Source: Candidatus Latescibacterota bacterium
GTDB lineage: Bacteria; Latescibacterota; UBA2968; UBA8231
Direction of reading: 5' to 3'
DNA: 64,000 bases
Assembly: GCA_965217585.1 (NCBI GenBank)
Contig: OZ244561.1
Span: 2,112,001 to 2,176,000, forward strand
Shown here piece after piece: positions 4,241 through 56,138 of this stretch. A model generated the notes under the pieces. That model made no database searches. It saw nothing but the letters and a program-made list of their open reading frames with translations, and was not told the origin of the DNA. Each line of letters opens with the position of its first letter. Within the stretch, counting starts at the first letter, position 1. A program made the position numbers and the translations under genes.

Positions 4241-4409
4241 GAGTGCCTCCTTTTGTATTGAAGAATGGTGTCGTTCGCCGCCAGCTAAAATTAGAGGGTT
4301 CTATCCATTGGGCAAATTGATTATTGCTATATAATTAATAGAAAAAATTAATATATCTTGTATGGTAACGGGAGCGGACCAGTCCAGCGAAAGCGCAGAA
4401 GGGCGAGAA

Positions 4410-9464: not shown

Positions 9465-9485
9465 CAGCCGCTTGCGCGGCCCGGC

Positions 9486-11526: not shown

Positions 11527-11745
11527 AAACGGTTGTCTTTCGGTTTATCGCGCCGCAAGACGCAGAATTGACTCAAAAACTCACTATTTTTGGCATAAGG
11601 TTTAAAAGCTGTCTGAAAACCCCCGACGGACCGTGTTGAGCAGTGGTCAAATCCCGACGGAGCGTTTTCGTTTTTTGGAGTTCCTGAGCTTTTATATTTT
11701 TATACACACGTTTTATCTTCTTTGACTCTTCCGAGAATAAAAATA

Positions 11746-11808
11746 TAACTCATTTCGACTACGGGATTGTATCGACTACGGGATTGTAACTCATTTCGAC
11801 TACGGGAT
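11746..11808. repeat. Three direct repeats of TCGACTACGGGAT
   Basis: Copies at 11755-11767, 11772-11784, 11796-11808; copies 1 and 3 share the prefix AACTCATT. Confidence 0.9.
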
Positions 11809-40256: not shown

Positions 40257-40290
40257 GCGGGCCGGTATAGTTATCACCACCTCAACTTCC

Positions 40291-40947
40291 CTGCGCGCCG
40301 TCGTCTTTGACATGGACGGTCTCATGCTCGACACCGAGCCTTTGTATCAGGCTGCTTGGCAACGAGCCGCGGCGGCGTTGGGTTACTTCTTGGACGACGA
40401 GTTCTATCTGACCTTGATTGGCACTCCCACCAAGGAAGCCCTAAAAAAGGTAGGTGCCTACTTTGGCCCCGCTTTTCCCTTGCAGCGCTTTACCGAGTTG
40501 GGTGCAGACCAATGGTACCGGCAAGTGGAAGAACACGGCATTGATACCAAGCCCGGCCTGCTGCCCTTGCTCGACCAACTTGAGGCGACGGCCGTCCCCA
40601 GAGCAGTGGCTACTTCTTCCAGCGCCAAGCAGGCCGCGGAGACCTTGGAAGCGGGCGGTTTGGCGGGCCGCTTTGCCCACCTTGTTACCAGCGACCAAGT
40701 CGCCCTCGGCAAACCAGCCCCTGATCTCTACTTGGAGGCTGCCCGCCGCTTGGGTTTGCCCCCGGCTGCTTGTATCGCCCTAGAGGATTCGGAAGCTGGA
40801 GTCCAATCGGCCTCCACTGCGGGAATGACCGTGCTCATGGTGCCCGACCTCAAAGCACCTTCGCCCCAAGCCGGGGCCCAAGCGTACAAAATCCTGCCCT
40901 CGCTGCACCAAGCCGCTCCTTTGATTGCCGACTTGTTGGCGCACTAA
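40291..40947 (+). CDS. HAD-family phosphatase; start uncertain and non-canonical
   Basis: LRAVVFDMDGLMLDTE, VATSS, KPAPD, EDSEAG. Confidence 0.85.
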   Translation: MRAVVFDMDGLMLDTEPLYQAAWQRAAAALGYFLDDEFYLTLIGTPTKEALKKVGAYFGPAFPLQRFTELGADQWYRQVEEHGIDTKPGLLPLLDQLEATAVPRAVATSSSAKQAAETLEAGGLAGRFAHLVTSDQVALGKPAPDLYLEAARRLGLPPAACIALEDSEAGVQSASTAGMTVLMVPDLKAPSPQAGAQAYKILPSLHQAAPLIADLLAH

Positions 40948-40993
40948 TCAGAGTGCGCTGGGACGCTTGGCCTTAATCATCGATACAACAATG

Positions 40994-41013
40994 CGGCCCC
41001 AATACTGGGGCCG
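40994..41013. terminator. GC hairpin between convergent genes
   Basis: CGGCCCCA-ATAC-TGGGGCCG; no strong U tract. Confidence 0.45.
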
Positions 41014-41018
41014 GACAG

Positions 41019-41849
41019 CTAGGCTTGTTGCGATCTGTTTTCTTCGAGCCAACCGACCGTGAAGTCCACGACGTCTCGTTGTGGCATGAGCTGGCAATCT
41101 GCAAGACCAACCCGGCCGCGGCGGACCGCGTGGCCTGCCTCTGATCGCAGAAAGTCTTCGCCGATGCGATCAAAATCTGAACTATCGATGTCAACATCTT
41201 CAAAGGTAGCCCATCTCCGCGAACCCGACGGAGAGATTGGCGCGCCCTGCTGGATGACGCGTTTGGTTGGAAAAGTCGCCCGATGTTCCGCAAGGTGCAT
41301 GGACGTATTATTTCCATGATCCACACCGAGAAGAAGGACAAAGCCGTGCAGATCGTAAATTCTCGCAAGCGGCGAATGCTCACCCATACCAAAGGCCAAT
41401 GAGTGATTATCGGTGATGCGCGATGCTTGGGGTCCACATGCACAAAACGAGACCTGCGGATGTACGCTGCGGAGAACGTCTCGCTGCTTGCGGAATGTCT
41501 CCGCGATAATGCCCATGGAACGAGTGGGGGTAAGCACTGGATCGTAGGCCGGCATGTTTTCGCGTATTACCGGCCACCACGACTTGGGGACGGGCGGACT
41601 TTCCCATCCGCTCGGTTCAGTCAGGTCGGGCGAGTGGGCGGGCATCACAAGCGTTCCAGCCGAGCCCAAGGCTTCCTGCAGGGCAACGATGACCGCTACA
41701 GCTCCTCCGCACACCCATCCCATTGCACTCAAGGACGAATGCACCAACACGACCATCCCCGGTTTGACGCCAAGCGCACGGAGGTCAGCCTGTAACGATT
41801 TGACTGTGGCGGGGACTTCTGTTTTTTCAACGATCTTATATTCACTCAT
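41019..41849 (-). CDS. AAC(3) family N-acetyltransferase (YokD-like)
   Basis: VHSSLSAMGWVCGG, GTLVMP, RSVHP, NTSMHLAE. Confidence 0.92.
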   Translation of the reverse strand: MSEYKIVEKTEVPATVKSLQADLRALGVKPGMVVLVHSSLSAMGWVCGGAVAVIVALQEALGSAGTLVMPAHSPDLTEPSGWESPPVPKSWWPVIRENMPAYDPVLTPTRSMGIIAETFRKQRDVLRSVHPQVSFCACGPQASRITDNHSLAFGMGEHSPLARIYDLHGFVLLLGVDHGNNTSMHLAEHRATFPTKRVIQQGAPISPSGSRRWATFEDVDIDSSDFDRIGEDFLRSEAGHAVRRGRVGLADCQLMPQRDVVDFTVGWLEENRSQQA

Positions 41850-41871
41850 TTCTTGCCTTCGTATAAAATTT

Positions 41872-42234
41872 TCAAGAGGTGTGAAAGATTTGGCTAGCAA
41901 AGTTTCGGATACACTCCATTGTATCTGGCGGTATGCTAAAATCGTCGCGAATCTGAATGTAGAGTGCCCCTCGATAGTTCATGTCGAAGTACTTTGATGT
42001 GCGAGCGAAAGGTACTTCGAACCCGACAGGCAAGGCGTCATCTGTTCCAGTGGCAACAAGCCACGTATCTCGTCCTGCAAGAGAGCGTCCGATGTCCTTG
42101 CGAATCTGAAGTAGATCCGTGAGCCTGTCGAGTAGGAGCCGAGTATTGCCGTTGTCCCTAGCGGTGCCGAGGACGAACGCTACTTTCTTAGTGTGTTGCA
42201 CTTGTCTTTCGTATGATCGCTTCAATAAAATCAC
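41872..42234 (-). pseudogene. Internally deleted flavodoxin-like NAD(P)H oxidoreductase
   Basis: GTARDNGNT N-terminus joined directly to LTDLL...GRSLAGR; central PxYW segment missing. Confidence 0.65.
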
Positions 42235-42331
42235 CTTTCAAGTAAAGACTGCATGGAGACGGTTGCGAACGAAATCGCAATCCTCAGGACGGGGTTTATC
42301 TTCGATCGAGATCTGCATCATCTTACTTTAC

Positions 42332-43198
42332 TCAAGCGTCGAATGACAGCGACAATCCGTCAAATGCTACTCTGTAGCCATGTGCTGCGGCATACTCGTC
42401 CAGTTCGTCATGCTCTAGGTATCCTTCGTGTGAGATATGAGTCGCGTAAGCTTCCGCGTTGTCCTTGAGAAGACCGCTGCGCCGAAAGCGATCGACGTGG
42501 CCTATTACGTCAACGGATGCCAGATGATCAGGCGGACTAACGTCAAAGCCGATGCCATACGTGTGATCAAGGACGAGCAAATCGAACTGCGTACCTGCAA
42601 ACAGAAGATGCTCCCAGACCTGCTCTGATAGAATCGAGGTATCAGTACCGTAAAATATGGCGTGCTGGCCTTGCTCGATTGAGTAAAGCAGGCACCCCTT
42701 TTCGGTGCCGTGGTTCGCGGGATACCCCGTGAAGCGGTAATCGCCGCCGACTTGAGCCTTGAACGGCTCGACGGTCAGCAGATTGATCTTCAGGGCGCGC
42801 TGTGTGTCTTGAGCGAAAATACTTCCGTACTCGCATCTTCTGCCCAAAACCTCATCAATAGACCTCAGTGCATCGATTGAACCTGCTAGAAGCATTTCCT
42901 GTGCGACGACCGTTGCATATTCCTCGTGTCTTGACATGAGGAACTCTGGATCAAAGTGGTCCGCGTGGGCATGTGTCAATAGGCAGATACTGATGCCAGT
43001 CAGAGAAACGTCGTGAGCGAATGACGCGGTCGCTATGTCTGGACCAATATCCACTAGTAGGTCATCGTTGATTGCGATAGACGACCGCTTGCGGAGGTTC
43101 TTGCCGGCGGCCCGCCTCGCTTCTGAGCACGCCTGACATACGCAGAAGGGTATTGGCATCGACGGCGCGGCTGATGTTCCGAGAAACGTCACTTGCAA
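42332..43198 (-). CDS. MBL-fold metallo-hydrolase (PhnP-like)
   Basis: FLGTSA, PFCVCQAC, THAHADH, THISH. Confidence 0.9.
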   Translation of the reverse strand: MQVTFLGTSAAPSMPIPFCVCQACSEARRAAGKNLRKRSSIAINDDLLVDIGPDIATASFAHDVSLTGISICLLTHAHADHFDPEFLMSRHEEYATVVAQEMLLAGSIDALRSIDEVLGRRCEYGSIFAQDTQRALKINLLTVEPFKAQVGGDYRFTGYPANHGTEKGCLLYSIEQGQHAIFYGTDTSILSEQVWEHLLFAGTQFDLLVLDHTYGIGFDVSPPDHLASVDVIGHVDRFRRSGLLKDNAEAYATHISHEGYLEHDELDEYAAAHGYRVAFDGLSLSFDA

Positions 43199-43201
43199 AG
43201 C

Positions 43202-43963
43202 TTAGTCGGTCTCCGTCGTGGTGCAGAAACAAAGCTGATGTCTAGAGTCCGGCCCAAAGGCGTCTCGGTCCCAGTTCCCGAACTTCTCGTTGATCCTTAT
43301 TCCATTGTACTTTAGCAGGGCATCCAGTTCCTGCGGGAAATACATCCTGAGATTCAGACCGCCAACGATCTCATCAGAGTCCTCTCTGTAGTGCACCATG
43401 CGCGCGATCTGGGTGTCTGCTTCGTACCTATATGACTGCGTCACTTGCACCTCTTGTCCAGTTTCATCGTCTGTGTAGCGAGAGAATGGATACCGTCTGC
43501 TTGGGTCGCGATTGAGGATCTCTAGCCCAGGGACAAAGACGTCCAAAATGAAGTAACCACCCGGAGCGAGATGACGCTGCACGCAGCGAATGCACTCCTC
43601 GAAATCCGCTAGGTCATGCAGATGCCATAGTGCGTTGTATAGTAGCAAGATCGACCCATACTGCCTACCGATGTCAAAGCGGCGTATATCGTCGCGGATC
43701 CATTCGACCTTCACCTGTCTGCCGTCGGCCTTTGACCTAGCAAGGCTAAGCATCGGCTCCGAATAGTCGATCCCAGTGACTTCAAGGCCGTGCTCTGCCA
43801 AGGGGATCGCTATCCGGCCCGTTCCACAGGCCAGCTCAAGGACCCTCTCGCGGGAGGCGAGCTCAGCCAGAAACCAATCTGGAAGTGTAGCATACGCGCC
43901 GTAGTACTGGTCGTATTTGGCTGGGGCCAGATAGTCTGCGTCGATGGATTCTTCTTTTCTCAT
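43202..43963 (-). CDS. Class I SAM-dependent methyltransferase
   Basis: VLELACGTGRI, HLAPGGYFILD, RMYFPQEL. Confidence 0.92.
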   Translation of the reverse strand: MRKEESIDADYLAPAKYDQYYGAYATLPDWFLAELASRERVLELACGTGRIAIPLAEHGLEVTGIDYSEPMLSLARSKADGRQVKVEWIRDDIRRFDIGRQYGSILLLYNALWHLHDLADFEECIRCVQRHLAPGGYFILDVFVPGLEILNRDPSRRYPFSRYTDDETGQEVQVTQSYRYEADTQIARMVHYREDSDEIVGGLNLRMYFPQELDALLKYNGIRINEKFGNWDRDAFGPDSRHQLCFCTTTETD

Positions 43964-44166
43964 TTCAGATATCGTTGTGCCGTTGGGCGCAGTTATGTCC
44001 TACACTTTGCGTGCAACAAGCCGCACAAATGTTAAGTCTTTGTCCTTATCAGCCATCAGAAGATCCAAATCTCCGGATCGTACTTGGAAGCCAATGGAAA
44101 CCGCCCTCGGGAAAGAGGATGCTTCCCGTTTGCCAACACTGAATTCAATGTGTCTCTCCTATGCCG

Positions 44167-44685
44167 TTAGATAGTAGACAAGTCGCGCCGGAAGCGGATT
44201 TGTCGCCCTTCATCTCGGACGCCACCATCGCGGCACCACCCCATGGCCTCGTAGAAAGCGATTCCGTGCTCGTAGCCTTCTACAGTCCACACTATCGCCT
44301 CATCGTAGCCGTCTGCAACCAGATAACGCAAAGCGACAGACATCAACGCCCTGCCAATACCTGTACGCCAGTACGACGGATAGACAGCGATAGTATCAAG
44401 TTCGCCGAGGCGTGCATCCACCGGATCTCGGCTGGGTCCAATACCGACGAACCCTACAGTTGAACCCATACGCTCGGCTACCCACCAACGATGAGGGACA
44501 GGCTGAGCAAGATCGTAGCGCCAGCGTTCAGTAAGGGCTGGCGTCACAGTTCTATTGGCCTGCGATAGCAGTGCGCCAAATCCAGCGTTCCACGAATCGA
44601 TATAAATTCGCGCTACAATCTCGGCGTCAGCGGACGTAGCTGATCGGATCGTTGGTGGTAATTCTCGTGTCTTGTCTGGTCCCAT
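44167..44685 (-). CDS. GNAT N-acetyltransferase
   Basis: IRSAT, WRTGIGRALM, FYEAMGW; stop codon lies inside ATCTAAC. Confidence 0.9.
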   Translation of the reverse strand: MGPDKTRELPPTIRSATSADAEIVARIYIDSWNAGFGALLSQANRTVTPALTERWRYDLAQPVPHRWWVAERMGSTVGFVGIGPSRDPVDARLGELDTIAVYPSYWRTGIGRALMSVALRYLVADGYDEAIVWTVEGYEHGIAFYEAMGWCRDGGVRDEGRQIRFRRDLSTI

Positions 44686-44711
44686 CTGATTGCTATTGGT
44701 GATTCATCCTA

Positions 44712-44775
44712 TGTCAAAGTTTGGCCGGTTTGCTAACCGCGAACCGATTGCCGAGGCCAAGGCGCGAGCAGCGCC
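44712..44775 (-). repeat. Degenerate attC-like site (R' half plus loop)
   Basis: GTTTGGCCGGTTTGCTAACCGCGAACCGATTGC...AAGGCGCGAGCAGCGCC resembles 55267-55318. Confidence 0.55.
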
Positions 44776-44835
44776 GTAGCGCAAAGCGTGTCACGGAATG
44801 ATCAGATGCTCTTCGCGGATTGACCTGACACATTA

Positions 44836-45255
44836 TTAAGTTCGGTGTTGGGAAAATAGCCAGGGCAAAAGTTCGGGTTCCTTATAGGCGCGTAGAAGAT
44901 CGCCGTGAGATGTACCCTCATATTCCGTATACCTGGGATTTCCTCCTGCACTCCTAATCACAGCGATCATATCTCTGGTGTATTTGACCTTCATCACGGG
45001 GTCGCCGTCGACGTGGAAAGCCCAGATCGATTTACCGACCATCCGGTCTGCCCATTCGGTACGCCCCCAGCCCCCTATCGGGACTGCCGCCGCGAAGAGA
45101 TTAGGGACTCGCATGATGAGGTCCCAGACTCCGTGTGCGCCCATCGAATGCCCGATGACATAACAGCGGTCCGGGTCAATGGAGAAACGCCGCTGGAGGA
45201 CGGGGATGAGTTCCAGTATAGCCAGAATCGCGGCAGTCGGCTCGGCAGTGAACAT
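44836..45255 (-). pseudogene. N-terminally truncated alpha/beta hydrolase (COG4099 predicted peptidase)
   Basis: GHSMG nucleophile elbow, AAAVPIGG, WAFH; N-terminal half absent. Confidence 0.7.
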
Positions 45256-45326
45256 AACTATCGATATTCACGCCAGAGAATTCGTTATTCATATGGCATG
45301 CGATAATAGGGTAACTCTCGAATTTC

Positions 45327-45357
45327 CATTAACGTTTTCGCCGTGCCAGAACTGCGA
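45327..45357 (-). repeat. attC-like half site (R' end)
   Basis: CATTAACGTTTTCGCCGTGCCAGAACTGCGA near-identical to 55260-55290. Confidence 0.7.
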
Positions 45358-45396
45358 GGTGCCACCTGTACTGCAACAGGTGGCTGCGAAAAAAGA

Positions 45397-46185
45397 CTAT
45401 TGCCGACGCTTCAGCAGGAATATCATTTCGGGTGCCTCGGGCCCTATTGGTCGCCGATCAAATGATCCGAATTCTCCTACACTCTCAAGACCGGCAGCGC
45501 AGAAAAGCAACTTGAGGTGAGGATACGTATAGAAACTCATCTTCAATGGCTGCACTTCCTCAGACAGAACTTTATCAACTTCACACAAGCGGAAGATAAA
45601 CCTGCCCGAGAAATTCAGATTGATCAGGTCAATCTCGTCCTTTACAAAGTACCGGCGGAACATCCGGTCAGTCCCATCTTGTGCAGGCCACTCCAGGTCC
45701 AAGTATTCTTCGCCGACACCCGATAGAATTTTGTCGAAACTAGGATTGAATACATCAAACGCGAGGATACCGCCATCTGCCAAGTGTCTCCCGGCGTTTT
45801 TCAGGGCCGCTAGTTGATCTTCCGTAGTGTACATATGCTGCATGGGTCTGAACGGAATTACTACCAAGGAAAATTGATCACCCAAATAATGGGTGCGAAA
45901 ATCTCCCTCTATAACTCGTGTTCTCCGTCGTACGCTCCCACGTTCCTTGGCGAGCTTGGTGCGCAAGACCTCCAGCATTGAATGAGAAGCATCTATCCCC
46001 GTGACATCAACACCTTGTCGCGCCAGCGGCAAGGTGATTCTCCCAGTGCCGCAGCCAAACTCGAGGACCGGTCCACCATACTCATTGGCTAGATCGAGAT
46101 AGAAGTCCCTGTCCACCAAATCTTCCTTGACGCTGTATGCCGCGTCGTAATGTTTCGCTCCCGAACCATAGGAATCATCAATCAT
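45397..46185 (-). CDS. Class I SAM-dependent methyltransferase
   Basis: GPVLEFGCGTGRI, HLADGGILAFD. Confidence 0.92.
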   Translation of the reverse strand: MIDDSYGSGAKHYDAAYSVKEDLVDRDFYLDLANEYGGPVLEFGCGTGRITLPLARQGVDVTGIDASHSMLEVLRTKLAKERGSVRRRTRVIEGDFRTHYLGDQFSLVVIPFRPMQHMYTTEDQLAALKNAGRHLADGGILAFDVFNPSFDKILSGVGEEYLDLEWPAQDGTDRMFRRYFVKDEIDLINLNFSGRFIFRLCEVDKVLSEEVQPLKMSFYTYPHLKLLFCAAGLESVGEFGSFDRRPIGPEAPEMIFLLKRRQ

Positions 46186-46395
46186 TGTGAGTTACCTATC
46201 GTCGTATTGTTAGGGTCAATCCATCCTGAATCAACTTGACCAATTTTCGCTATGATCGAGCGCAAATCCGGATCTGAAAACTGATCTGTCTAGTCTTAAT
46301 GAACTACATTATCTCATTGAAGTATTCGATTATCTCACTGGAATTCAAGGCAGGCGCGTTGTGATTCCAGTGTCGACATGGTATTCTGCACTTTC

Positions 46396-46425
46396 GCTTA
46401 GCGTTTCGCCGGTTTGCGAACCGCG
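46396..46425 (-). repeat. Degenerate attC-like half site
   Basis: GCTTAGCGTTTCGCCGGTTTGCGAACCGCG; AAC core appears as AGC. Confidence 0.55.
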
Positions 46426-46429
46426 CGGA

Positions 46430-46792
46430 TCACGCCTTCTTCAGCGACACGAAATACTCCTCGAAGCCCAACTTGTGCCAGAAGCGTTTCCCGCTTGGGT
46501 TAGTCGCCAACACGTCCAACGAAACCTCTCTCCCGAGAAATCGCTCGTCCGCCAAGAGTTGGTAAGCCGCACTGCCTACGCCTTGTCCACGATGGGGCCG
46601 ATCAATGAAGAACTGACGGAGGTAAACGACTTCTTGGTCCGGATAGTAATAATCGCCCTGAAATTTGTAGACCGCGTAGCCTAGTATGACCCCGTTGGGA
46701 TCTATGAACAGGGCTATCTCCCATTCGTCGCCATCCAACCAAGCCTTAAGCCGTTGATGATACTCAACCGGCGAAAAGGGATTTCTGCTCCC
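46430..46792 (-). pseudogene. GNAT acetyltransferase, N-terminally truncated
   Basis: YLRQFFIDRPHRGQGVG, FWHKLGF; 5' end overlaps a NUDIX remnant; boundary approximate. Confidence 0.7.
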
Positions 46793-47045
46793 CTGTTGGT
46801 GAGAATGCCGTCTTGGGGACGGAGGCCCGAGAATCCAGCCGCAAGAAACGTGCCCCCTTTGGAATGCCTGCTTCCTCTTCCGCCTCACGCCGTGCGGTTT
46901 GCTCTGCCGTCTCATCGTCTTCGGCACCCCCTGCAATGAACTGCCACATAGAGTCATCCGCCCGATGGAAGACGGCAAACTGGTATCCGACATTCTCACT
47001 CTCTCTGAATGGTATCACGATCACTTGTAGGGGTTGCCTTGCCAT
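46764..47045 (-). pseudogene. NUDIX hydrolase, C-terminally truncated
   Basis: Nudix box GGAEDDETAEQTARREAEEEAGI; only 93 aa. Confidence 0.75.
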
Positions 47046-47046
47046 G

Positions 47047-47748
47047 CTAACTGTTCTCGCGGGTTGAGTCGCTCAGATCCAAAGCCAGACGCGCCCCCTG
47101 CTCAAATCCCCATTTGAGGCGTGCCTCAAGGAGCCCACGGCCGAAGCCCTGACCCCGATGCTTGGGATCAACCAGCAAATCAAAGAGCCCCATGATTGAG
47201 CCCGAAACAACTGCGCGGGCGCAGCCTACGGATTTGCCATCAGTCCGGGCGATAACATAGGCCGAAGGAGTGGGGATCGCGTTGAGCAAACTGCGAAATA
47301 CCTCAGAGTGCTGACTGCGACCGGACAGACGTCTCCAGGTTTCGAGCCATTCATCTGTTGCACATTCGTCTAGCGTTATGGCAGAGGAACTAGCGGAACG
47401 GGCCTCAAGCCGCTTGGTTTGAACCAGTGTATCGGCGTCTCTAGCGTACTGAAGCTGTGCCAAGGTCTCGTCCAAATTCCCAGGTTGACAGGCAGGAACA
47501 ATCTTGCAAAGACAAGGTAGCGAAGCCCGCGCGTACGCAGCTTCACAATGAAACAGCTTCTCTTGAAGCGGGGTTGTGGATCCATACAGCGGGACTACGC
47601 AGTTGGCCCGGCGACTGTATCCCCCAGACATTCGAACGATCCAGCCGTCGTAGAATTCTGTTTTCAGCGCGGGTAGCCCGTTCAGCGCCGCCTCTTCCAG
47701 CGCTACTACAAGCTCTGAACTGTTCGTTGAATCAAGTACTATCGTCAT
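47047..47748 (-). pseudogene. Tandem-domain GNAT acetyltransferase, probably C-terminally truncated
   Basis: YDGWIVR, GYSRRAN, HRGQGFGR; final motif B missing. Confidence 0.7.
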
Positions 47749-47762
47749 AGGTTTCGGTCTGC

Positions 47763-47942
47763 CTATTTGGTATTGGACTCGGCCACCCCAAGCCAGATCG
47801 AATCCTCATGCTGGATCCGATCAAAGACGGCGTCGAACTCTTGTCTCTCCACCTCGAACGAGGTGACGAAGTCCCTGGCAAGACGAAATACCGAGTCGCG
47901 ATCCGAATTCTCAGCTAGCCGAATAGATGGATTCGAGGTCAT
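47763..47942 (-). pseudogene. GNAT N-terminal fragment (59 aa)
   Basis: Own translation: MTSNPSIRLAENSDRDSVFRLARDFVTSFEVE...LGVAE then stop. Confidence 0.55.
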
Positions 47943-47957
47943 AATTGCTCATGCATT

Positions 47958-47982
47958 GCGCAAAACGCGTTGTTACACGACG
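47958..47982 (-). repeat. attC-like half site (R'' end)
   Basis: GCAAAACGCGTTGTTACACGACG resembles GCAAAACGAGTTGTTAAGCGAAG at 55903. Confidence 0.6.
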
Positions 47983-48073
47983 TTGGCTCTCTCTCCTACA
48001 AATACGCTTGAGCCAACTCCAGAAGCTCCTCCCAGCTCCTAACCTCTGCATCAACAGGGATATCCGCATGCTT

Positions 48074-50689
48074 TTAAAATTTTATCGTTTTCTTGTCATT
48101 ACCGCGTATGATGGTAACAACACCACTATTATACTTCGAGAGCATATAAGGGCTTTGGAAAACATTTTTCGGCGTATAATCGACGTACTCCCCGCCAATC
48201 GTTGGTATATCACGCGCGCAACCGTTAAAAACCAATTCCTTAGCATCAGGGCTACTGCCCTTATAGACTACGATATCGTAACGAGGTACAAGTGTACCAA
48301 GAAGCGTAATTTTATTGCTGAGGATTTTTTCCTGGAAGTTTTCAAAGTTGCCATAGTTTTCTCTTCTGCCGGTTTCAATAATAACAGGGCTGTGCTTGTC
48401 ATTGAGCTTGGCGATTGACTTTTCCTTATTCCAGGTGTAAGAGTCAATTGAAATATCAAGTTCTCTGGTTCTTGGCGGCAGGCTCGCGCCACGTTTGCCG
48501 GCGTCCCAAACTTTTTGAAACTCTGCTGAGACTCTGCCGCTAAGAGGCCGTACTGCAACGAAGGCATTACCTTTTTTCGTAAAAATCCAACCATCTCTTT
48601 CGACGATAGTTTCAACACCGTTAAAGACGATACCTACATCAGCGCCAAGACCAAACATAAACTTCGTATCAGCAGTGTCATATTCTGGGAACCACGTCGG
48701 GTCAATACGAAAAACACTTCGAGCAGATTGTGTTATCAGAACGTCTTTGTGCTGAACACTGCGGTATAACCCCATGCCATATTTGCCGACATACCTCATA
48801 TTTGCCCATTTTTCAGGGTCTGAAGTGTCAATAGTTTGAGGGTACACTCCGTTGTAATTGTAGCTTGAGATCGGATTGGCCGCACCAAAGATAACGCCGT
48901 TCCAACGTCCATGAAGGCTCAGATGGCTGTGTACCGCATCTGGCGGGTCCATCTGTGTGCCGATAACGTAATCTGGTGTAACCCAGCTATAACGTAAGAA
49001 TCGAGACTCGGTATCGCACATTAAAGACCACTCATTGCCCAGAGGCCTTGGCCATACATTTTCTTCTTCGCCAGGCCTTCTTGAAACAAACTCGAACTCG
49101 CCAAGCGACTCTCTGTCTAATGCCAATGCCCAAAGCAGAGGATCTGGCTCATAAGCTCCCATTATCATATTTCGCATCTGCGGGTAGGGCAAAGAACCTG
49201 CCGAACCCATACAAAAGTTAAAAAAGTCACGCAAACCTGTTCTGCTGCTCCAGCGGGTTGTAGCACCGCCTGGTAAGCCTGATACTTCATCTTGAGCCCA
49301 GTCAGCCCACATTATATCAAGAATGTTGTTGGCATACTTGCGAATTTTAGAATCCGCAGCGTAGGTGACGAGCTCGTTCATGGCGGAGGTTTGCAATCTC
49401 ATATAACCCGAAGAGCGCACCTCGACCCAAAGGCCTTTCCGGGCTCTATCTGGCAGGTAGTTATGGAAAAACTTGACCCATGCCTCGTAATGGTCTTTTG
49501 CAGTGTATTTTTTGCCATCGCTCCAGTCAGCTCTGCCTCCCAGCACTCCAGAATGCTTGCCATAACCGTAAGCTCCGCCCTGACCAAGGTTCGGGTAGAC
49601 CCTGTCCTTGAAATCGGGGTGGTTCATGAAAATCTGTGAGGTAAAAAGAGCGCCTAGTTTGAAAACAAGGTCATGGTTCTCGCTACCCTGAAGCCACCAT
49701 GTGTTTTTGCGCGACAGTGCGATGTCGTTGGCGATTTTCCAGGCATCCCACAGATTTTCAAGAAGAAGTCTTTCTGTTTCAGGGTAAAGCTTGCCCTTTG
49801 CAATGCGACCATTGCTTCCATAATCAAAAACAAGATTATACGACCTGCAGCCCTCATAGAGCGGTGTGCCAAAAAGGTTTTCATTTTCCTCTGGGTCGCT
49901 CATCAGTTTGACCATTAAAGCATTGGCCTCATCAAGCCTTTCACCAAGCTCTATCAGAGCCTCGGCTTGATGAAACTTTGTCACTTCGTAGGTCTTGCTC
50001 TGATGCGATAACAGTTCGCGAAAAGCGAAGGCATTACGAGCTTGTCTGGTTTCTCTGGCCTCTGCAATTCTCTGGCTCAAAAGTTTGTCCGTTACGCCAA
50101 CGATATGACCGCTGGAAGCGTTTTGATAGTACACCTCATCGAACCATACCTTATCACCCGTTGCCAGCTTCAAGGCAACTTCACAGCCTGCTATGCCACT
50201 ATTGAAGTCAAAAGCACTCTGTGATTTGAAGTCTGACAGCGGTACAACAATCTCCTGCCACTGGTCATTGCAGTTAAAATCGGACAAAAGGTAAGAAGCT
50301 TTATTGCCGTTGGTATCGAGCAGTATGAGTGAAACTTTTTCTGCTCCGCTTTGAGCCCTAAGCAGCAGGTGCAAGCTGTAATCTGCGTTAATGCCCCAAC
50401 GATCAAACCATGGCCCAGGTGTGAAACCGATTTTGCGGAGGTTGTCATTCTTTGCCTCAAAGACGACACTGAAATCGCCAGACTTTTTATTCACATAATC
50501 CCGGGTAAAGTTTCGCAGGTTATCGCCCTTGCCGAATTGCATGTCCTTTTGCCCGTCTTTGTTATCAACAATCTCCTGATCAGGGCTTACCGCATTAAAG
50601 AGCCTTAGAGCTTCGTCATAAAACTCAAACTTCTGTGTGTCAATACATTCAAAAGCGAAGACGCCGGAACAAACCAGTAGATCTGTCAT
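48074..50689 (-). CDS. Large low-GC hypothetical protein (CBM-like N-terminus plus putative lyase-like domain); 5' end disrupted by IS630
   Basis: 871-aa ORF; WQEIVVPLSDF...VWFDEV CBM-like pattern; GSENH and EVRSSGY motifs. Confidence 0.75.
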   Translation of the reverse strand: MTDLLVCSGVFAFECIDTQKFEFYDEALRLFNAVSPDQEIVDNKDGQKDMQFGKGDNLRNFTRDYVNKKSGDFSVVFEAKNDNLRKIGFTPGPWFDRWGINADYSLHLLLRAQSGAEKVSLILLDTNGNKASYLLSDFNCNDQWQEIVVPLSDFKSQSAFDFNSGIAGCEVALKLATGDKVWFDEVYYQNASSGHIVGVTDKLLSQRIAEARETRQARNAFAFRELLSHQSKTYEVTKFHQAEALIELGERLDEANALMVKLMSDPEENENLFGTPLYEGCRSYNLVFDYGSNGRIAKGKLYPETERLLLENLWDAWKIANDIALSRKNTWWLQGSENHDLVFKLGALFTSQIFMNHPDFKDRVYPNLGQGGAYGYGKHSGVLGGRADWSDGKKYTAKDHYEAWVKFFHNYLPDRARKGLWVEVRSSGYMRLQTSAMNELVTYAADSKIRKYANNILDIMWADWAQDEVSGLPGGATTRWSSRTGLRDFFNFCMGSAGSLPYPQMRNMIMGAYEPDPLLWALALDRESLGEFEFVSRRPGEEENVWPRPLGNEWSLMCDTESRFLRYSWVTPDYVIGTQMDPPDAVHSHLSLHGRWNGVIFGAANPISSYNYNGVYPQTIDTSDPEKWANMRYVGKYGMGLYRSVQHKDVLITQSARSVFRIDPTWFPEYDTADTKFMFGLGADVGIVFNGVETIVERDGWIFTKKGNAFVAVRPLSGRVSAEFQKVWDAGKRGASLPPRTRELDISIDSYTWNKEKSIAKLNDKHSPVIIETGRRENYGNFENFQEKILSNKITLLGTLVPRYDIVVYKGSSPDAKELVFNGCARDIPTIGGEYVDYTPKNVFQSPYMLSKYNSGVVTIIRGNDKKTIKF

Positions 50690-50691
50690 TA

Positions 50692-51758
50692 TTGAGGTTC
50701 ACCAAAGTTTGTTTACGGTTAGTTGTGCATGATGGAAGAAGCCCAGTATCATATCTGGCCGATGGCGTAAGCGTGCGAACTGTCGATCGACATGTCGTTG
50801 CATGGCCTCGACGGTATCCCAGGTGCTGTTGCGCAGATGCTGTTTGACGGTGCCATGACAGAATTCTTCTGGATTGATTTCGGGGGCATACGGCGGCAGC
50901 CATTCGACCCGGATTTCAGGATGCTCCTGTAGATAGTCTTTGACCGGTTGGGCGCGATGGGCCGACAGCCGATCCCAAATCAAAATAAACCCGGTTCCTA
51001 CCCATCGCCGCACATGGTGGAGGGCGCGGACTACTTGGGCGGCACCAATGGAGCCGCGAAAATGGCGTTTGTAGATTTTACCGCGCAGGGTCAACGCCAC
51101 CACACTAGAAAGCACCCGGCGTTGCCGTTTAACCCGCCGGATCACCGGCGGGCATCCGATAGGAGCCCACGTGGTGGTTAGCTTCTCGGTAAACGAAAAG
51201 CCGCATTCATCCAAAAAGACCACATCCACCTTAAGCCGACGGGCTTTTTTTTATCCGAGGCCAATCGCACTTCAGCCACGTTTCGACGCGGGCATCATCC
51301 CGTTCCAAGGCGCGATCAACGGGTTGTTGCACACTAAAGCCGAGTTGGTGGAGCAAGCGGGCTAGATAGTGGGGATGATAGGTAATGGCAAAGTCGCGCT
51401 CGATAAGCTGCTGGACTCTTTTGAGCGTCCAGCGATCGGTCGCAAACCCCGCACGTAGGGCCCCCTGTTGGAGGCGCTGCTTCAGTTGGTGCTTTTGCCG
51501 GAGGCTCAACTTCGACGGGCGTCCACAAGGCGTCCGCCGGTGCAGCCCAACCACTCCATCGGTGCGCAACCGCTGGGCCCATTTCGATACGGCCATGCGA
51601 CTGACGCCCAACTGCCGAGCAATCGCCGCTTGCGACAAGCGGCCTTCTTGCAAAAGCCGAGCCCCGGCAAGGCGGCGCTCTTCTAACTGGGCACGGGTCA
51701 AATGAGTAGGAGTCCAAGTCATAAACGTATAATGTAAACCAATTTTAGTGAATGTCAA
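50692..51758 (-). mobile_element. IS630-family insertion sequence (1067 bp) with TA target duplication
   Basis: Imperfect 25-bp TIRs TTGAGGTTCACCAAAGTTTGTTTAC / TTGACATTCACTAAAATTGGTTTAC; TA at 50690-50691 and 51759-51760. Confidence 0.92.
50699..51722 (-). CDS. IS630 transposase split into HTH and DDE ORFs at an A8 tract
   Basis: HTH ORF (start 51722) ends WPRIKK; DDE ORF has FLDE, LIWD, LPPYAPEINPEE; A8 at 51245-51252. Confidence 0.9.
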
Positions 51759-51796
51759 TAATACCGCAACGCGTTTGCTGATTTAACTCGCCCCTT

Positions 51797-52581
51797 TCAA
51801 GAGATCCACACCGTTTTGTATGCAAAAAAAGGCTCCAGACCCATCTCGCCGTAGCGCCGGCCAATGCCGCTCTGCTTAAAACCACCCCAGGGTGTGCGAT
51901 GGCTCAGCATACTGGCACTATTAATGGTCACAACCCCCACTTCCAATCGCCGCACAAAATAGCGTTGTCGCTCAGGATCTAGAGTCCAGAGCGAAACGAG
52001 CAGTCCGTAGTCCGTATCGTTAGCCAACGCCAGCGCCTCGTCGTCGCTAGCAAACGTCAGCACGGATACAACCGGTCCGAAAATTTCGTCGCGGCAAACC
52101 GGACCGGACTGATCTGCAAAGGCAAAGGCCGTGGGCTCAAAATAGCAACCCTTCGCGTACTCGTCTCCCGGCGGATGTGCGCCACCAAACAGTAGAGACC
52201 CTTGTGCTTTTCCCATCTCGACGTAGCGCTCCACGCGCTCTACCGCCGCCTGGTCGATCAACATGCTGGGCCCTGCGGTCTGCGCCTTTTCTTTTAATAG
52301 AGCGATAAATTCGTCGCGCAGCGATTCGTGCAGCAAAACCCGACTTATTGCCGAGCACGCCTGCCCGGGGAAGGCCGATCCCACGGTCGCCGTCGCCGCT
52401 TCCACTCGGCATAAAATGCTTCGCGCGCAGCAGCAGCGGCCCGATCCACGTCGGCCCGACTGGCATCGGCGACTTCGGCGACTAATGTGCCGTCTACGGG
52501 GCTATACAGGGGATAGTAGCGTCCAGATGTTGGGGGACACATTTGGCCCCCGATCAGCAAATCGCTTTTTTTGACACTCAC
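51797..52581 (-). pseudogene. Aldehyde dehydrogenase with large internal deletion and frameshift
   Basis: N-terminus (LLIGGQ...DVDRAAAAAREAF) joined near 52400 to GQAC, DEIFGPV, PWGGFKQSGIGR; NAD-binding core absent. Confidence 0.85.
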
Positions 52582-52638
52582 TTTATCTTCTTCCTATTGA
52601 AACTCTACTTTTCTCACAACTTCACCGAGGAATCCACC

Positions 52639-54633
52639 TTGCCATCACCGCCGGCTCTGCCCGAAAATTACGACGCCGAGGCACACATGGTCACCCATCA
52701 GGTGCGCGGGCACATCTTTCACGCCACCATACCCTCGGCTCAACTGGCCTCCGAGCTGATGGCCAGCGGCGCACCCGCCGCCATCGCCGAAGCCACTCTC
52801 ATCTTTCGCGCCGTGCTCGCCTGCCAGGAAGTGCGGGACACCCAACCGCACCGCGGCAATTTTCGCTGGGAGCTGGAAGACGAAGTCGTCGAAGATCTCA
52901 ATGCCGTGCAGTTCGTGCTCTTTTATTGCATTCCCGTGCTGTGCAAAACATCAGACGCCCTGCCCCCGGACTTGGTCGCGGCTATGCGCCGCGCCGTCGC
53001 GCTGGGCCTGGAGGAAATCGCGCGCATCGACGTGGCCCCGGCCTATACCAACATCGTCCTCAAGGACATCGCCAACTCCTGCCTCGGCGGCCAGTTGTTG
53101 GGCGATAATAATATCGGCCGGCGCGGCCGGGAAAAACTGGTGCGCTGGATGGCGCACGTGGACACCTACGGCCTGCCTGCCGAATACAATAGCCCCAACT
53201 ACGTCTCTGTCGCCGTGCGCGTGCTGGGCCACCTGGCCGAACTGACAGAGGACAAACATACCCGCATCCGCGCCCGCACCATGCTCGCTCGTCTCGGCCT
53301 TTCCGCTGCGTTACACGTACACCCCGGCATCGGCTGCTGGGCCGGCCCCTTCAGCCGCGCCTATAGCCATGCCGTCTTTAACGCCGACGCCTTTAACGCC
53401 GATGACGTGCGCGCGTGGTTGGATGGCGGGCAGCTACCCGCCTGGATCGGCGACCTGCTGCAGCGGCCCGACGTGCCGCAGCAAATAGACGAAACGGCCC
53501 ATGGCGAAGAGCCCGTGGCGCTGAGCACCTATCACAGTCCCTCGTTCTGTCTGGGCGTGGCCTCTTGCGAACTGAAGACCCAGGAAGTCATCTTTATCGC
53601 CCTGCAGTCCAGCGTATTTCACGCGCAGTACCGGCTCCCGCATGGCGCGCGTTGCGGCGTGCTCTTTTCGCGTTATATACTCGACGACCAGTGGCTCAGC
53701 TTCCAGACGACGCCGTCGCGCGCGCCCGGACAGGTCGTTCCCGAAGAGGGCCACTTCTACGGCGTGCACGAGCGGGGTCGCGCCATCGGCCTCTACGCCC
53801 CGCGCGACCTGGACGCCTGGACGCGGCGTACCAGCGCCAAAGCCGTGCTCGTGTGGACCGAGATCGAGCAGGTCGACGAGATCTGGATCGGCCAGCACAA
53901 AGTAGATTCTCTGCCGGCGGCAGTGCCCCGGGGCAAGGTGGTCGTCGTCGGCAGCGGTGCCCTGTGGACTGCCGTCCAGCCGCTCGAGTTGACCGATCTG
54001 GGCGGCGGTGCCCCCATCCGCTTGGTCGAACTGGACGGTCATCTGGCCCTGGAGATGTACAACTATACGGGACCGGCCAAGACTTTCTGGGAAATGGCCA
54101 AACCCGGCTCCTTTTACCAGGGCCAACCCCGCTGCGGTTTCTACGCCGAACTGGCCGAGCGCACCGACTACGCCAGCGGTGCCAATTTTGCCGCCGAGGT
54201 AGCGAGCGGCGCGCTCGTCGACGAGGCGGCCCCGCCCGCCACCTATACCGCGGGTGGCGAGCGCGCGCTCCGCGTGGAGTACGCGCGCGACGACCGCATA
54301 CTCGGCATCGAAGTCGATCTGTATGAGTGGTCGCTAAAGCGGCGTTGGACCCAGGACGGCTCCCTAAACTGGCCCATGCATGAGTCGCCCTACGCCCGAC
54401 AGAGCGCTTCCGGACAGGTCTCCATCGGCGGTGCCACTCTCACCTGCGACAAGGGCCCGATATGGCTCTGCGCCTGCCCGGGGGGCAAAAGGTATGTTGC
54501 CGCCTACAGCGGAATCGGGATGACCTCGTTAAGATTGGAGGTGTCCGGCGATGTAGTCGAGCTAGCTGAAGTGGGCGCGGGCACGGTGATTTGGGACGAG
54601 GGCCAAGTAAAAATAGAAGCCATATTGCCCTGA
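52639..54633 (+). CDS. Hypothetical protein, putative heparinase II/III-like (alpha-toroid plus beta-sandwich)
   Basis: TTG start with GAGGA RBS; EYNSPNY and AGPFSRAY motifs shared with 58739-60622; fold is inference. Confidence 0.7.
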   Translation: MPSPPALPENYDAEAHMVTHQVRGHIFHATIPSAQLASELMASGAPAAIAEATLIFRAVLACQEVRDTQPHRGNFRWELEDEVVEDLNAVQFVLFYCIPVLCKTSDALPPDLVAAMRRAVALGLEEIARIDVAPAYTNIVLKDIANSCLGGQLLGDNNIGRRGREKLVRWMAHVDTYGLPAEYNSPNYVSVAVRVLGHLAELTEDKHTRIRARTMLARLGLSAALHVHPGIGCWAGPFSRAYSHAVFNADAFNADDVRAWLDGGQLPAWIGDLLQRPDVPQQIDETAHGEEPVALSTYHSPSFCLGVASCELKTQEVIFIALQSSVFHAQYRLPHGARCGVLFSRYILDDQWLSFQTTPSRAPGQVVPEEGHFYGVHERGRAIGLYAPRDLDAWTRRTSAKAVLVWTEIEQVDEIWIGQHKVDSLPAAVPRGKVVVVGSGALWTAVQPLELTDLGGGAPIRLVELDGHLALEMYNYTGPAKTFWEMAKPGSFYQGQPRCGFYAELAERTDYASGANFAAEVASGALVDEAAPPATYTAGGERALRVEYARDDRILGIEVDLYEWSLKRRWTQDGSLNWPMHESPYARQSASGQVSIGGATLTCDKGPIWLCACPGGKRYVAAYSGIGMTSLRLEVSGDVVELAEVGAGTVIWDEGQVKIEAILP

Positions 54634-54682
54634 TTCGGCTGCCGAACGGATCGAAGCAGGCTCGGTGAGAGCGTTTTTGACA

Positions 54683-54900
54683 CTACTTGGCCCGTCGCTG
54701 CTTTGCCAACCACTCCCACAGGTCAGGATCGCTGTATGCATTTTGCCACGCCTCCACGTGGCCCCCTTCGGGGTACACAGTAAAGCGGACATTGCCTCCG
54801 GCAGCCTTGAGAGCATCAACCATCTCCTGTGATTGTTTCAACGGCACTGCCTCGTCTTGCGCACCGTGGAAAACCCAGGTCGGGACCTCCTTTCCGCACA
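54683..54900 (-). pseudogene. C-terminal fragment of a COG4099-like peptidase/esterase
   Basis: VPTWVFHGAQDEAVP...FTVYPEGGH...WEWL; 5' boundary approximate. Confidence 0.7.
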
Positions 54901-54952
54901 GCGGGTTGCCGAAGGCCAAGGCGGTGTAGCTGCCGCAGCGCAACACCGAGGT

Positions 54953-55239
54953 GTTAGACGTTGCGCGGTGCTATTTGTCAAATGGTAAATACAGACTGCA
55001 CCGACACCCCAGGGGCTCCAGCATCCGATCTCTGCAAGCCGGTCCTTCGTACTCTCAAAATCCTGTCGCTCAATGTCAATGTCAATGATTGGCTTGGCGG
55101 TCATTCCGGAGATAGATGTGCTACCGACATGCTCGATGCTGCAACATCTTCCTGACAAAACAGAGTCAAAACGGTGTCGCAACTCTTCGAACCATGAAGG
55201 CCAGGTCGGATCATAGTGCTTTACCAAAGTAACTGACAT
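54953..55239 (-). pseudogene. GrpB-family cassette gene, internally deleted
   Basis: YDPTWPSWF, IEHVGSTSISGMTAKPIIDID; bounded by complementary GTTAGACG/CGTCTAAC cores. Confidence 0.8.
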
Positions 55240-55257
55240 GATTCAATTGACCGCGTT

Positions 55258-55344
55258 GCGTCTAACGTTTTCGCCATGCCCGAACCGCGAAGCGGTTGCG
55301 CAAAGGCGCACCAGCACCCAAGCCAGGCACGGGGTGTTATACGC
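55258..55344 (-). repeat. Nearly complete attC-like recombination site
   Basis: Minus: GCGTATAAC ACCCCGTGCC...GGCATGGCGAAAAC GTTAGACGC; inner GTGCC/GGCAT stem; ATG about 20 nt downstream. Confidence 0.75.
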
Positions 55345-55414
55345 CGTATGGTTACTCATGCCGAGCAACCAGTTTCTCCCTCAGTTTGATCGCTGTTTCG
55401 TACGCATCTGCAAG

Positions 55415-55482
55415 AAACCCGAAGCCGCAAGGCGGTTTCTGCGGAGCGAAGCGAAGCCGGGCACGGGCGTGTTAAGCGAAGG
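55415..55482 (-). repeat. attC-like half site (R'' end plus loop)
   Basis: Minus CTTCGCTTAACACGCCCGTGCCCGGCTTCGCTTCGCTCC; GCTTAAC core lies 18 nt after the LLM fragment stop. Confidence 0.65.
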
Positions 55483-55495
55483 TGCACTTTCCTTA

Positions 55496-55702
55496 TCATC
55501 GGAAACGCGGGATGACACAATCGGCAAAGAGCCTCATCGACTGCTCCGCCAACTCATGATCAATGTTGCCCCATTTGAACCAGCATATTACCTCTTCCAC
55601 ATCAAGAATCTCCCTGTGCATTATATGACGCTGTTCAAAATCGGCACCGTACAGAGAAAACTCATAGGGAGACCCGGCTGCCCACATTATTGGCTGAGGC
55701 AC
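55496..55702 (-). pseudogene. LLM-class flavin-dependent oxidoreductase remnant
   Basis: PQPIMWAAGSP and EQSMRLFADCVIPRFR C-terminus; only 68 aa. Confidence 0.55.
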
Positions 55703-55897
55703 ACCCGTTGCCGAGTGGCGATTCGGTCATCATCGTCAGCCGTGCCTTTCGTCAGAATAGCGAATTGGACCACCATTAGAATCAAAGAGTTTGTGTGGAT
55801 AATCGCAACCAATCCCGCGAGGCTGGAATGTTCTACGTAACTCCTTGCGATAACTTGAGATAGCACGATTCTTCTGAGATCTGACGCGCCTAGCACC

Positions 55898-55926
55898 GCC
55901 GAGCAAAACGAGTTGTTAAGCGAAGG
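55898..55926 (-). repeat. attC-like half site (R'' end)
   Basis: TGTTAAGCGAAGG identical to 55470-55482. Confidence 0.6.
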
Positions 55927-56138
55927 AAGAAATGGTACCGCTCCTCCTTTCGCATCGCCTCAACGATACTTATTATGCTAAGTCATAAAGTCATAGGGAG
56001 ATCCGCTCCTTAGGAAATCTCAGCGGATGTTCGTAACGGTGGTCTCCTGAGCATCTGAGGAGTTGAAGTTTAGGCGCAGACTGTAGGGCATCAGGCGACA
56101 AATATCGCTATCGAGTGAGCCATGGGAAGGAGAGCCTT

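Follow-up and report, generated by a model that had tools for sequence, protein, structure and literature searches.

The window analysed here is a 64 000-nucleotide stretch (G000:C1:2112001-2176000) of the genome of a Candidatus Latescibacterota bacterium, a single contig of 7.32 Mb with a GC content of 0.595. Small minus-strand genes fill two blocks of it, at 41.0-48.0 kb and 54.7-55.9 kb, where GC falls to 0.53-0.54; other arrays of the genome have a GC of 0.515-0.56. The original prediction, made from the letters of the window, had read these blocks as an integron-like array of gene cassettes divided by attC-like sites. As background, attC sites are bounded by RYYYAAC and GTTRRRY and keep their inverse end cores and their R and L stems by structure. 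On the strand that recombines they carry extrahelical bases and a central spacer that stays unpaired. They lie 3′ of a co-oriented, usually promoterless open reading frame (ORF), and are recombined by the integron integrase at G|TT. From the evidence set out below we conclude that 44.7-48.0 kb and 54.7-55.9 kb are probably the fossil of an integron-type cassette array whose recombinase has been lost, and we are rather more confident that the repeats between the genes are attC-type debris.

Pfam searches bore out much of the gene content first proposed. The AAC(3)-type gene, the MBL-fold hydrolase and two S-adenosylmethionine (SAM) methyltransferases are present, while the GNAT acetyltransferases number three, not four. 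The esterase, NUDIX hydrolase and GrpB genes are there only as fragments, as are an alpha/beta hydrolase and an aldehyde dehydrogenase, and Pfam gave no luciferase-like monooxygenase (LLM) where one had been named. The first genes of the series, at 41019-44685 (minus; GC 0.53), are the AAC(3)-like gene, a 120-aa ORF, the MBL-fold hydrolase, methyltransferase 1 and GNAT1, identified by Pfam, conserved across the genus and without attC sites. The AAC(3)-like gene matches Antibiotic_NAT in Pfam (8.8e-92) and scores 210 bits against the NCBIfam model AAC_3, under its 270-bit cut-off.

The rest of the first block, all on the minus strand, starts with the esterase fragment (44836-45255; positions 72-187 of the 217 in the Pfam DLH profile), followed by SAM methyltransferase 2 (45397-46185; Pfam) and GNAT2 (46430-46999; Pfam GNAT, 2.1e-12). 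An N-terminal NUDIX fragment (46764-47045; profile positions 5-70 of 134) overlaps GNAT2. GNAT3, an acetyltransferase of the Rv0428c_C type, lies at 47047-47748 with a 58-aa ORF upstream at 47766-47942. Beyond an intervening block at 48074-54633, the second stretch carries a C-terminal alpha/beta hydrolase fragment (54683-54946, minus; Pfam Peptidase_S9, 2.4e-8, profile positions 143-208 of 213) and an N-terminal GrpB fragment (54838-55239, minus; Pfam GrpB, 3.1e-18, positions 4-69 of 159). The ORFs at 55496-55702, 55687-55896 and 55238-55840 matched no Pfam family at E ≤ 1. Sequencing runs labelled as sponge, coral or marine metagenomes contain small shares of the window stretch, from which we draw no claim about habitat.

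An attC-type repeat family

The repeats of the window belong to a family that is dispersed through the genome; a near twin of the one intact window site (55257-55345) stands beyond the window, at a distance of 66 kb. Searches with nhmmer, seeded with two sites and then with 13, recovered copies in about six genomic clusters. A covariance model, R1, was built from 17 full-length copies found genome-wide, with the structure set by hand. The genome holds at least 22 copies, R1 giving 22 sites at E ≤ 1 in about six clusters. Each site is an imperfect palindrome of 60-100 nt whose structure comprises R and L stems and a pair of inner hairpins. The cores at its ends, TAAC and GTTA (CGTTA), are invariant, occurring in all 17 seed sites and in 22 of the 23 distinct rows of a model-fitted alignment; the wider RYYYAAC/GTTRRRY consensus is obeyed in part only. 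A naive scan for AAC...GTT hairpins was discarded, as it gave 4035 matches genome-wide, and Rfam at its gathering thresholds returned no match in the window.

The structure was assessed on a structure-blind MAFFT alignment, in which 75.2% of pair cells are paired, compared with 27-45% when the partners are slid, and in which the covariation score is 0.278 against a maximum of 0.116; none of 500 shuffles scored as high. The corresponding values for a model-fitted alignment of 24 sites, which leans towards the model, are 76.7% (maximum 45%) and 0.357 (maximum 0.125). Changes on both sides are seen in 15-17 of the 27 pairs, and the covariation extends across four helices. RNAalifold on the MAFFT alignment gave four pairs only. 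Predicted bottom-strand folds have a one-sided bulge of 3-5 nt after the R stem in most well-folded sites.

The family is also tied to genes. Of the 19 strong genomic sites, 17 have the end of a co-oriented ORF (93 aa or longer) no more than 80 nt upstream, against about three of 19 on the opposite strand; an ORF followed by its site is the layout of a cassette, one gene with its own attC. Scattered repeats of no consistent orientation, the outcome by which the original prediction was to be judged wrong, were therefore not what we found, and its view of the repeats as attC-type sites of integron-like cassettes is supported by the covariation, the invariant cores and the association with ORFs. 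A comparison of site orientation with GC skew allows no inference, the cumulative curve being flat over 1.85-4.0 Mb. Among 30 congeners, R1 matches at E ≤ 1e-3 are found in 18, in arrays spaced at 0.7-2 kb; in the family, 27 of 75 genomes, belonging to nine of its 18 genera, have matches at E ≤ 1e-6.

Intergenic palindromes found 3′ of genes, several of them isolated, might also be repetitive extragenic palindromes (REP), relatives of miniature inverted-repeat transposable elements (MITE) or terminators, and not recombination sites at all. We give this explanation very little credence. The genome has no Y1 (RAYT/IS200) transposase (no match to PF01797, in a search whose control found the transposase in six of 14 known genomes), and such elements would not account for invariant TAAC and GTTA ends, for covariation in four helices or for one site per gene. 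Nor would they explain the divergent recombinases that head related arrays, or a conserved flanking segment that ends exactly at GTTA, both described below. A different repeat is present at genome positions 2852540-2871001 (minus strand, outside the window), where six copies of about 150 nt contain GGCACCGGGCGTTA. This repeat, which is no attC site, resembles a conserved terminal part shared by the genes of a paralogous family.

Within the window, R1 run over all 64 kb with filters off returned 10 matches at E ≤ 10, only one of which reached E ≤ 0.01; the top four and the seventh coincide with sites already named in the original prediction. All nine of the half-site coordinates given there (44712, 45327, 46396, 55260, 47972, 54953, 55336, 55471 and 55915) proved real, and they resolve into eight elements of one family. 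All eight lie between genes on the minus strand, which is the gene strand; one is intact, and seven are truncated or mutated. The intact site (55257-55345) has GTATAAC as R″ and GTTAGAC as R′, together with an L stem and a pair of inner hairpins, and its R1 score of 77 bits (E 6.6e-14) ranks second in the genome. The sister genome G001 carries an orthologue of this site (L046 8473-8563, 63 bits). In the window, the ORF of the GrpB fragment begins 17 nt past the R′ end of the intact site.

The seven remnants, all on the minus strand, are broken in different ways. Remnant a (55898-55921), recognized by the motif TAACANCNCGTTTTGC and by alignment, is an R″-L″ half fused to a relic of the platform segment described below. 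Remnant b (55397-55480; R1 14.9 bits, E 0.81) keeps R″ and L″ and has its R′ end destroyed, and remnant c (54851-54962; 15.2 bits, E 0.7) keeps R″, L″ and hairpin 1 and has lost the R′ half. Remnant d (47955-47980), identified by motif count, is a further R″-L″ half. Remnant e (46396-46428) is an R′ half with the core GCT instead of GTT, and contains a 23-nt repeat with 91% identity to 44719-44741. Remnant f (45324-45370; 10.4 bits, E 7.2) is an R′ half that keeps GTTA, an unrelated hairpin replacing its R″ half; 28 nt of it are 89% identical to the intact site, and it is common to the congener G013 (16.9 bits). Remnant g (44713-44798; 13.4 bits, E 1.7) is full-length with both end cores mutated, and 44716-44788 is 79.7% identical to an intact site at genome position 4305847 (blastn, E 1.6e-8).

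The three halves beyond the reach of R1 are backed by motif counts. The motif TAACANCNCGTTTTGC occurs four times in the genome against 0.03 expected, twice in intact sites and otherwise at window positions 47960 and 55903, and the R′-half pattern also occurs four times, once at window position 46399. We tried remnants c and e as the two halves of one site and rejected the pairing, the joined form folding no more stably than shuffles do (z −0.23); as a duplex, remnant e pairs best with remnant a, not c. The 'bare cores' reported at 43982, 44166, 46209 and 47045 do not rise above chance, GTTRRRY and RYYYAAC each occurring 13-14 times per strand in 41019-55926 where about 9.7 are expected from the genome-wide rate.

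Array-head recombinases and the platform segment

Arrays of the R1 family are also found in sister genera. There they extend over 30-50 kb with homogeneous sites and one ORF per site, and in six genomes (G138, G137, G132, G136, G134 and G133) a tyrosine recombinase gene encoding about 312-327 aa lies 1.2-3.7 kb beyond the array head on the opposite strand. In G138, for example, the layout leads from the recombinase (L054 2212-3150, plus strand) across 176 nt to an attI-like core, then to a 364-aa ORF on the minus strand and to an R1 site 23 nt past the stop codon of that ORF. Pseudogenes of the head recombinase are present in G137, G133, G134 and G132. Its best NCBIfam match is the integron integrase model TIGR02249, at 230-239 bits, below the cut-off of 265; the match falls in two stretches and skips the middle of the profile. 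When aligned with four canonical IntI and two Xer-like proteins, the head recombinases lack the 29-residue I2 insertion and a second insertion of about 10 residues. They have eight residues in the I2 columns, compared with 29 in nine canonical IntI, and in a 53-row set all 43 non-IntI rows have 8-12 (a tenth canonical IntI row, in the wrong frame, was left out of the I2 count). The head clade falls within an insertion-less family, a large one whose members carry the annotations tyrosine recombinase, XerD or 'tyrosine recombinase/integron integrase'. The 53-row tree does not settle in which order this family, the Xer-like clade and the IntI clade branch.

A second-tier member of the insertion-less family, 55% identical to the head clade, is encoded in G129 (L045, G129:C1:3258001-3268000; 4451-5422, plus strand) and scores 234.7 bits against XerA_Arch, over that model's cut-off. 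It is followed by a 333-aa ORF and an R1 site (6729-6816, plus strand), and is thus co-oriented with the cassette, not divergent from it. According to Escudero et al. (2020, PMC7790495), cassettes cannot be captured without I2, which also confers single-strand recombination and for which it is essential; the insertion is stated to occur in no other protein and to have no known evolutionary intermediates. Our literature search returned no report on insertion-less integrases heading attC arrays.

The genome studied here has no such enzyme. Its five PF00589 genes all lie outside the window, which agrees with the earlier statement that the window holds no integrase, and no match to TIGR02249 exceeds the cut-off anywhere in the genome. 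With four canonical IntI proteins of the phylum as queries, tblastn found no relic at E ≤ 10 near any array, and the same four together with three head-type recombinases found only Xer-like genes in the genome. An orthologue of the head recombinase is absent, the three best recombinases of the genome grouping with conserved Xer-like types (100/100 in the tree). One candidate integrase relic of 37 residues, at genome positions 621207-621317 and 1.5 kb beyond the head of an array at 0.61 Mb, was set aside as too weak (E 5.9 genome-wide, 0.028 in 35 kb).

It had been suggested that a recombinase encoded elsewhere mobilises the array. For this genome the suggestion fails, there being no IntI, IntI relic or head-recombinase orthologue, and we consider it highly improbable that the window array is still mobilisable. 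Two observations could be cited in favour of continued mobility: the site at 55257-55345 is structurally intact at 77 bits, and cassettes elsewhere in the genome appear to have moved recently. Blocks of the 0.61-Mb array are 97.4-98.7% identical to their partly reordered counterparts in G001, compared with 93.3-94.0% in the flanks, and in a second array the values are 98.6% for blocks and 94.9% for flanks. The cassette pieces of the window, on the other hand, are no more similar to G001 than the core genome is (86.5-95%), and remnants are common to several species. Cassette behaviour in the past, which speaks for the fossil-array reading itself, is seen in the block ends shared with G001, several of which fall in or beside attC sites, and in a cassette that stands alone at genome position 2100789 but sits inside the array of G001.

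Individual genes of the window do have relatives beside sites of the family. GNAT3 has a paralogue with 93% identity, next to attC sites, at genome positions 2190970-2191651, 31 kb downstream, and in congeners an R1 match lies within 6.5 kb of eight of the 12 GNAT3 copies; judged from this sequence context, GNAT3 is a true cassette gene. SAM methyltransferase 2 stands at other loci in at least 19 congeners and adjoins an R1 site in G001.

A stretch of about 230 nt on the upstream side of the head recombinase gene is conserved across five genomes from four genera, and the conservation of this platform segment stops abruptly at an attI-like ...CAAGCA GTTA, beyond which the first cassettes are unrelated. 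In two relics of the present genome it also ends at GTTA. A hidden Markov model of 246 positions built from the five foreign genomes (nhmmer) matches the window at 55790-55897 (minus strand; E 3.5e-15, model positions 64-171), a relic truncated before the attI core. The relic lies directly downstream of remnant a, at the array head, where the attI side is expected. The model matches 12 times in the genome, several times inside arrays, with copies of about 100-180 nt, one of which is found 0.5 kb past the point where the 0.61-Mb array has its head. Two copies that are complete to GTTA and lack an integrase lie 12-14 kb past the window end (L008, G000:C1:2176001-2196000; about 11596-11763 and 13403-13572, minus strand), beside an R1 site at 12225-12318 and the GNAT3 paralogue. 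Three copies begin at the same model position, each fused there to half an attC.

Together these features suggest how the array arose and stopped. Each cassette would have consisted of a promoterless gene and a palindromic site of one lineage-specific attC family, and a tyrosine recombinase would have inserted the cassettes at an attI-like site ending in ...CAAGCA GTTA. Loss of the recombinase gene from the genome would then have left the array frozen and decaying; a relic of the segment upstream of the attI-like site survives at its head. We infer that the sites were recombined in the manner of attC sites, and that the enzyme was an insertion-less, IntI-like recombinase of the type that heads the sister-genus arrays. 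This last assignment we favour only slightly, since its support is genomic association.

Canonical integrons and known systems

Canonical integrases are not absent from the phylum. IntI proteins above the TIGR02249 cut-off occur in 17 of 168 phylum genomes, 10 of 75 family genomes and one of 30 genus genomes, the sole genus example (G015) being split over two frames (161.6 and 253 bits). The sites could accordingly be ordinary attC of a canonical, I2-bearing IntI, with the insertion-less recombinase an Xer-like bystander. In G128, a canonical IntI and 47 R1 matches do occur together. G129 holds a complete canonical integron (L041, G129:C1:3539001-3559000), in which IntI is encoded on the minus strand (about 9232-10515) and three or more cassettes lie on the plus strand; its attC sites are short and share the AAC/GTTA end cores, and R1 does not detect them. 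This integron is bracketed by direct repeats of 100% identity (4579-5063 and 17862-18221) and may be a mobile unit.

The distribution of R1 sites, however, makes a canonical enzyme unlikely as their partner. With filters off, R1 found no match at E ≤ 0.1 within 10 kb of the canonical IntI of G128, G085, G129 and G157, the only match up to E 1 being one of 17 bits near that of G128. Seven of the 10 IntI-positive family genomes have no R1 match, and the genomes richest in R1 matches have no IntI (G138 with 40, G137 with 36, G132 with 27, G136 with 16 and G134 with 14). Also against the bystander reading is the placement of the head recombinases, six of whose eight copies lie 1.2-3.7 kb from an R1 site, divergently oriented and with a conserved attI-like junction. 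G128 also carries, just past the head of a 32-kb R1 array and on the same strand as the cassettes, a 115-aa fragment of IntI/Xer type (L043, G128:C2:33001-45000; 4243-4590, minus strand), which matches TIGR02249 at 72 bits over profile positions 41-147. On balance, we see roughly even chances that the integron lineage to which the attC family of the window belongs uses an integrase without I2.

The sister-genus elements resemble sedentary chromosomal integrons in their divergent recombinase, their attI-like GTTA junction and their homogeneous 30-50-kb arrays with one ORF per site. They differ in a head recombinase that lacks I2 and the insertion of about 10 residues and scores below the TIGR02249 cut-off. 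In the present genome we found no intI with the additional domain beside an attI and cassettes, the arrangement that defines a complete integron. The original prediction had pointed to the term CALIN, a cluster of attC sites lacking an integron integrase, described in the IntegronFinder definition as at least two attC less than 4 kb apart on one strand with no integrase beside them (10.1101/030866, 10.1101/2022.02.28.482270). A strict call does not bear out that label: it gives a single attC, the one intact site. When remnants are counted by the same rule, there are two clusters, at 44.7-48.0 kb and 54.85-55.92 kb. A single attC without an integrase is the SALIN as defined in Loot et al. (10.1101/2022.09.11.507474). 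The window array shares with CALIN and SALIN its small extent, its decay, the lack of a nearby integrase and the position of its attC-type sites, 3′ of small genes in the same orientation. Unlike them, it has one strict site of a lineage-specific family, a branched middle with two hairpins and an attI-proximal platform relic. The figures given by Cury et al. (10.1101/030866) include the absence of a nearby intI pseudogene for 95% of CALINs.

Two other systems offer partial parallels. The Delta-attI-type cassettes of mobile integrons, as described in PMC12901181, also place partial attI sequences inside cassette arrays, while the platform copies of this genome measure about 100-180 nt, three of them being fused at the same position to half an attC. 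The pdif modules of Acinetobacter plasmids are likewise bounded by sites for Xer-type tyrosine recombinases without I2. In the account in PMC7399989, however, pdif are short, double-stranded XerC/XerD sites, whereas R1 sites are structured palindromes of 60-100 nt, in co-oriented arrays with a dedicated neighbouring recombinase. A literature search found no paper on integrons in Latescibacterota, although supplementary tables of surveys may list such genomes.

The R1 family, spread over at least nine Latescibacterota genera, builds large arrays in genomes that lack an integron integrase of the canonical kind. If the insertion-less enzyme does capture cassettes, then either recombination of folded attC needs no I2 or these arrays recombine in another way, and the enzyme would be a natural intermediate or alternative in integron evolution. 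The head recombinases thereby make the origin of single-strand recombination in integron integrases testable. Searches of the IntegronFinder type would label such arrays CALIN, and surveys may include, among their CALINs, complete elements whose type has gone unrecognised.

Decay and division of the array

The window array itself is dead, and provides a well-resolved example of decay following integrase loss. That it is eroding, as the original prediction held, is evident from seven broken sites and five gene fragments; the broken sites are truncated in their variable middle or mutated in their cores. The modes of decay on view are sites broken midway, sites deleted, genes truncated, insertion of an insertion sequence (IS) and chromosomal rearrangement.

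The two blocks are split by the block at 48074-54633, characterised by Pfam matches, GC and the gene order of relatives. It begins with an 871-aa ORF (48074-50689, minus strand; GC 0.464), followed by an IS630-type transposase in two ORFs (50699-51758, minus; Pfam DDE_3 and HTH), the C-terminal part of an aldehyde dehydrogenase (51797-52405, minus; positions 255-461 of the 461 in the Aldedh profile) and a conserved 696-aa ORF (52543-54633, plus). The IS630-type element directly abuts the Aldedh fragment and appears to have truncated that gene. Neither the 871-aa nor the 696-aa ORF matched a family in PADLOC, NCBIfam or Pfam. The nearest Atlas cluster of the 871-aa ORF is an unnamed family (0.98), with polysaccharide-lyase-like clusters at 0.79-0.86 as a lead only. 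The ORF has no cover in run X1, where the depth is 0 over 48.4-50.8 kb, and is covered in three other runs; this is an absence of cover only.

When 38-58 kb of the window was compared by blastn with the genus and four fetched loci, the proposal that the two blocks were once adjacent was upheld. In G013 and G010 only 1.4-4 kb separate the homologues of the sequence up to 47055 from those of 55722-55981, the 48-55.7 kb block being absent between them, and the Aldedh/696-aa pair is found 0.4-1.3 Mb from the array locus. In the sister genome G001 the pair abuts the orthologue of the intact site. The array has thus been divided by a translocated core block, a foreign gene of low GC and the element of IS630 type. 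The syntenic loci are eroded in all of these relatives, G001 having one intact site and G013 and G010 none, and the esterase fragment and remnant f are common to G013 at 93.5% identity. Since the eroded loci and the remnants are common to other species, we conclude that the array died before these species split.

Several observations weigh against reading the locus as a cassette array. Seven of its eight sites depend on low model scores (E 0.7-7.2) or short motifs. In the predicted folds of the family, a single bulged base is found in about nine of 24 sites, and the extrahelical bases typical of attC are not clearly present. With no R1 site within 10 kb of the four canonical IntI genes of relatives, the link to classical integrons is one of architecture, not adjacency. 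Contigs assembled from public runs X19, X23, X24 and X1 over 40001-58000 contain joints at 46422|54900 (three runs), 47959|55267 (two), 55301-6|55452 (four) and 43963|44149 (three); we did not use them as evidence, their sides measuring 21-40 nt in a repeated family, so that they may stem from other copies. Finally, the AAC(3)-like gene, MBL-fold hydrolase, methyltransferase 1 and GNAT1 are kept in conserved synteny at 90-95% nucleotide identity without attC.

This last point bears on the test that a gene order fixed across relatives would speak against an array. For the genes at 41.0-44.7 kb the order is indeed largely fixed, while the content between GNAT1 and window position 55722 varies between species. 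Of the 30 congeners, at least 23 carry the AAC(3)-like gene; the window query did not find it in G128, G129, G157 and G026, and found it in G085, away from any R1 site. Presence varies gene by gene, the MBL gene being missing in G001 and a HAD gene in G019, and G013 having an extra methyltransferase. R1, with filters off, has no match at E ≤ 10 within 41019-44685. Because these genes are conserved, syntenic and without attC, their status as cassettes is not shown, and we place the fossil array from 44.7 kb onwards; they may be old cassettes. Runs of genes without attC can arise by deletion, as seen where L007 12940-13090 is compared with L050 8310-8600: a clean deletion of 153 nt in the present genome has removed an attC that G001 retains, with about 30 nt on each side, fusing two neighbouring cassettes.

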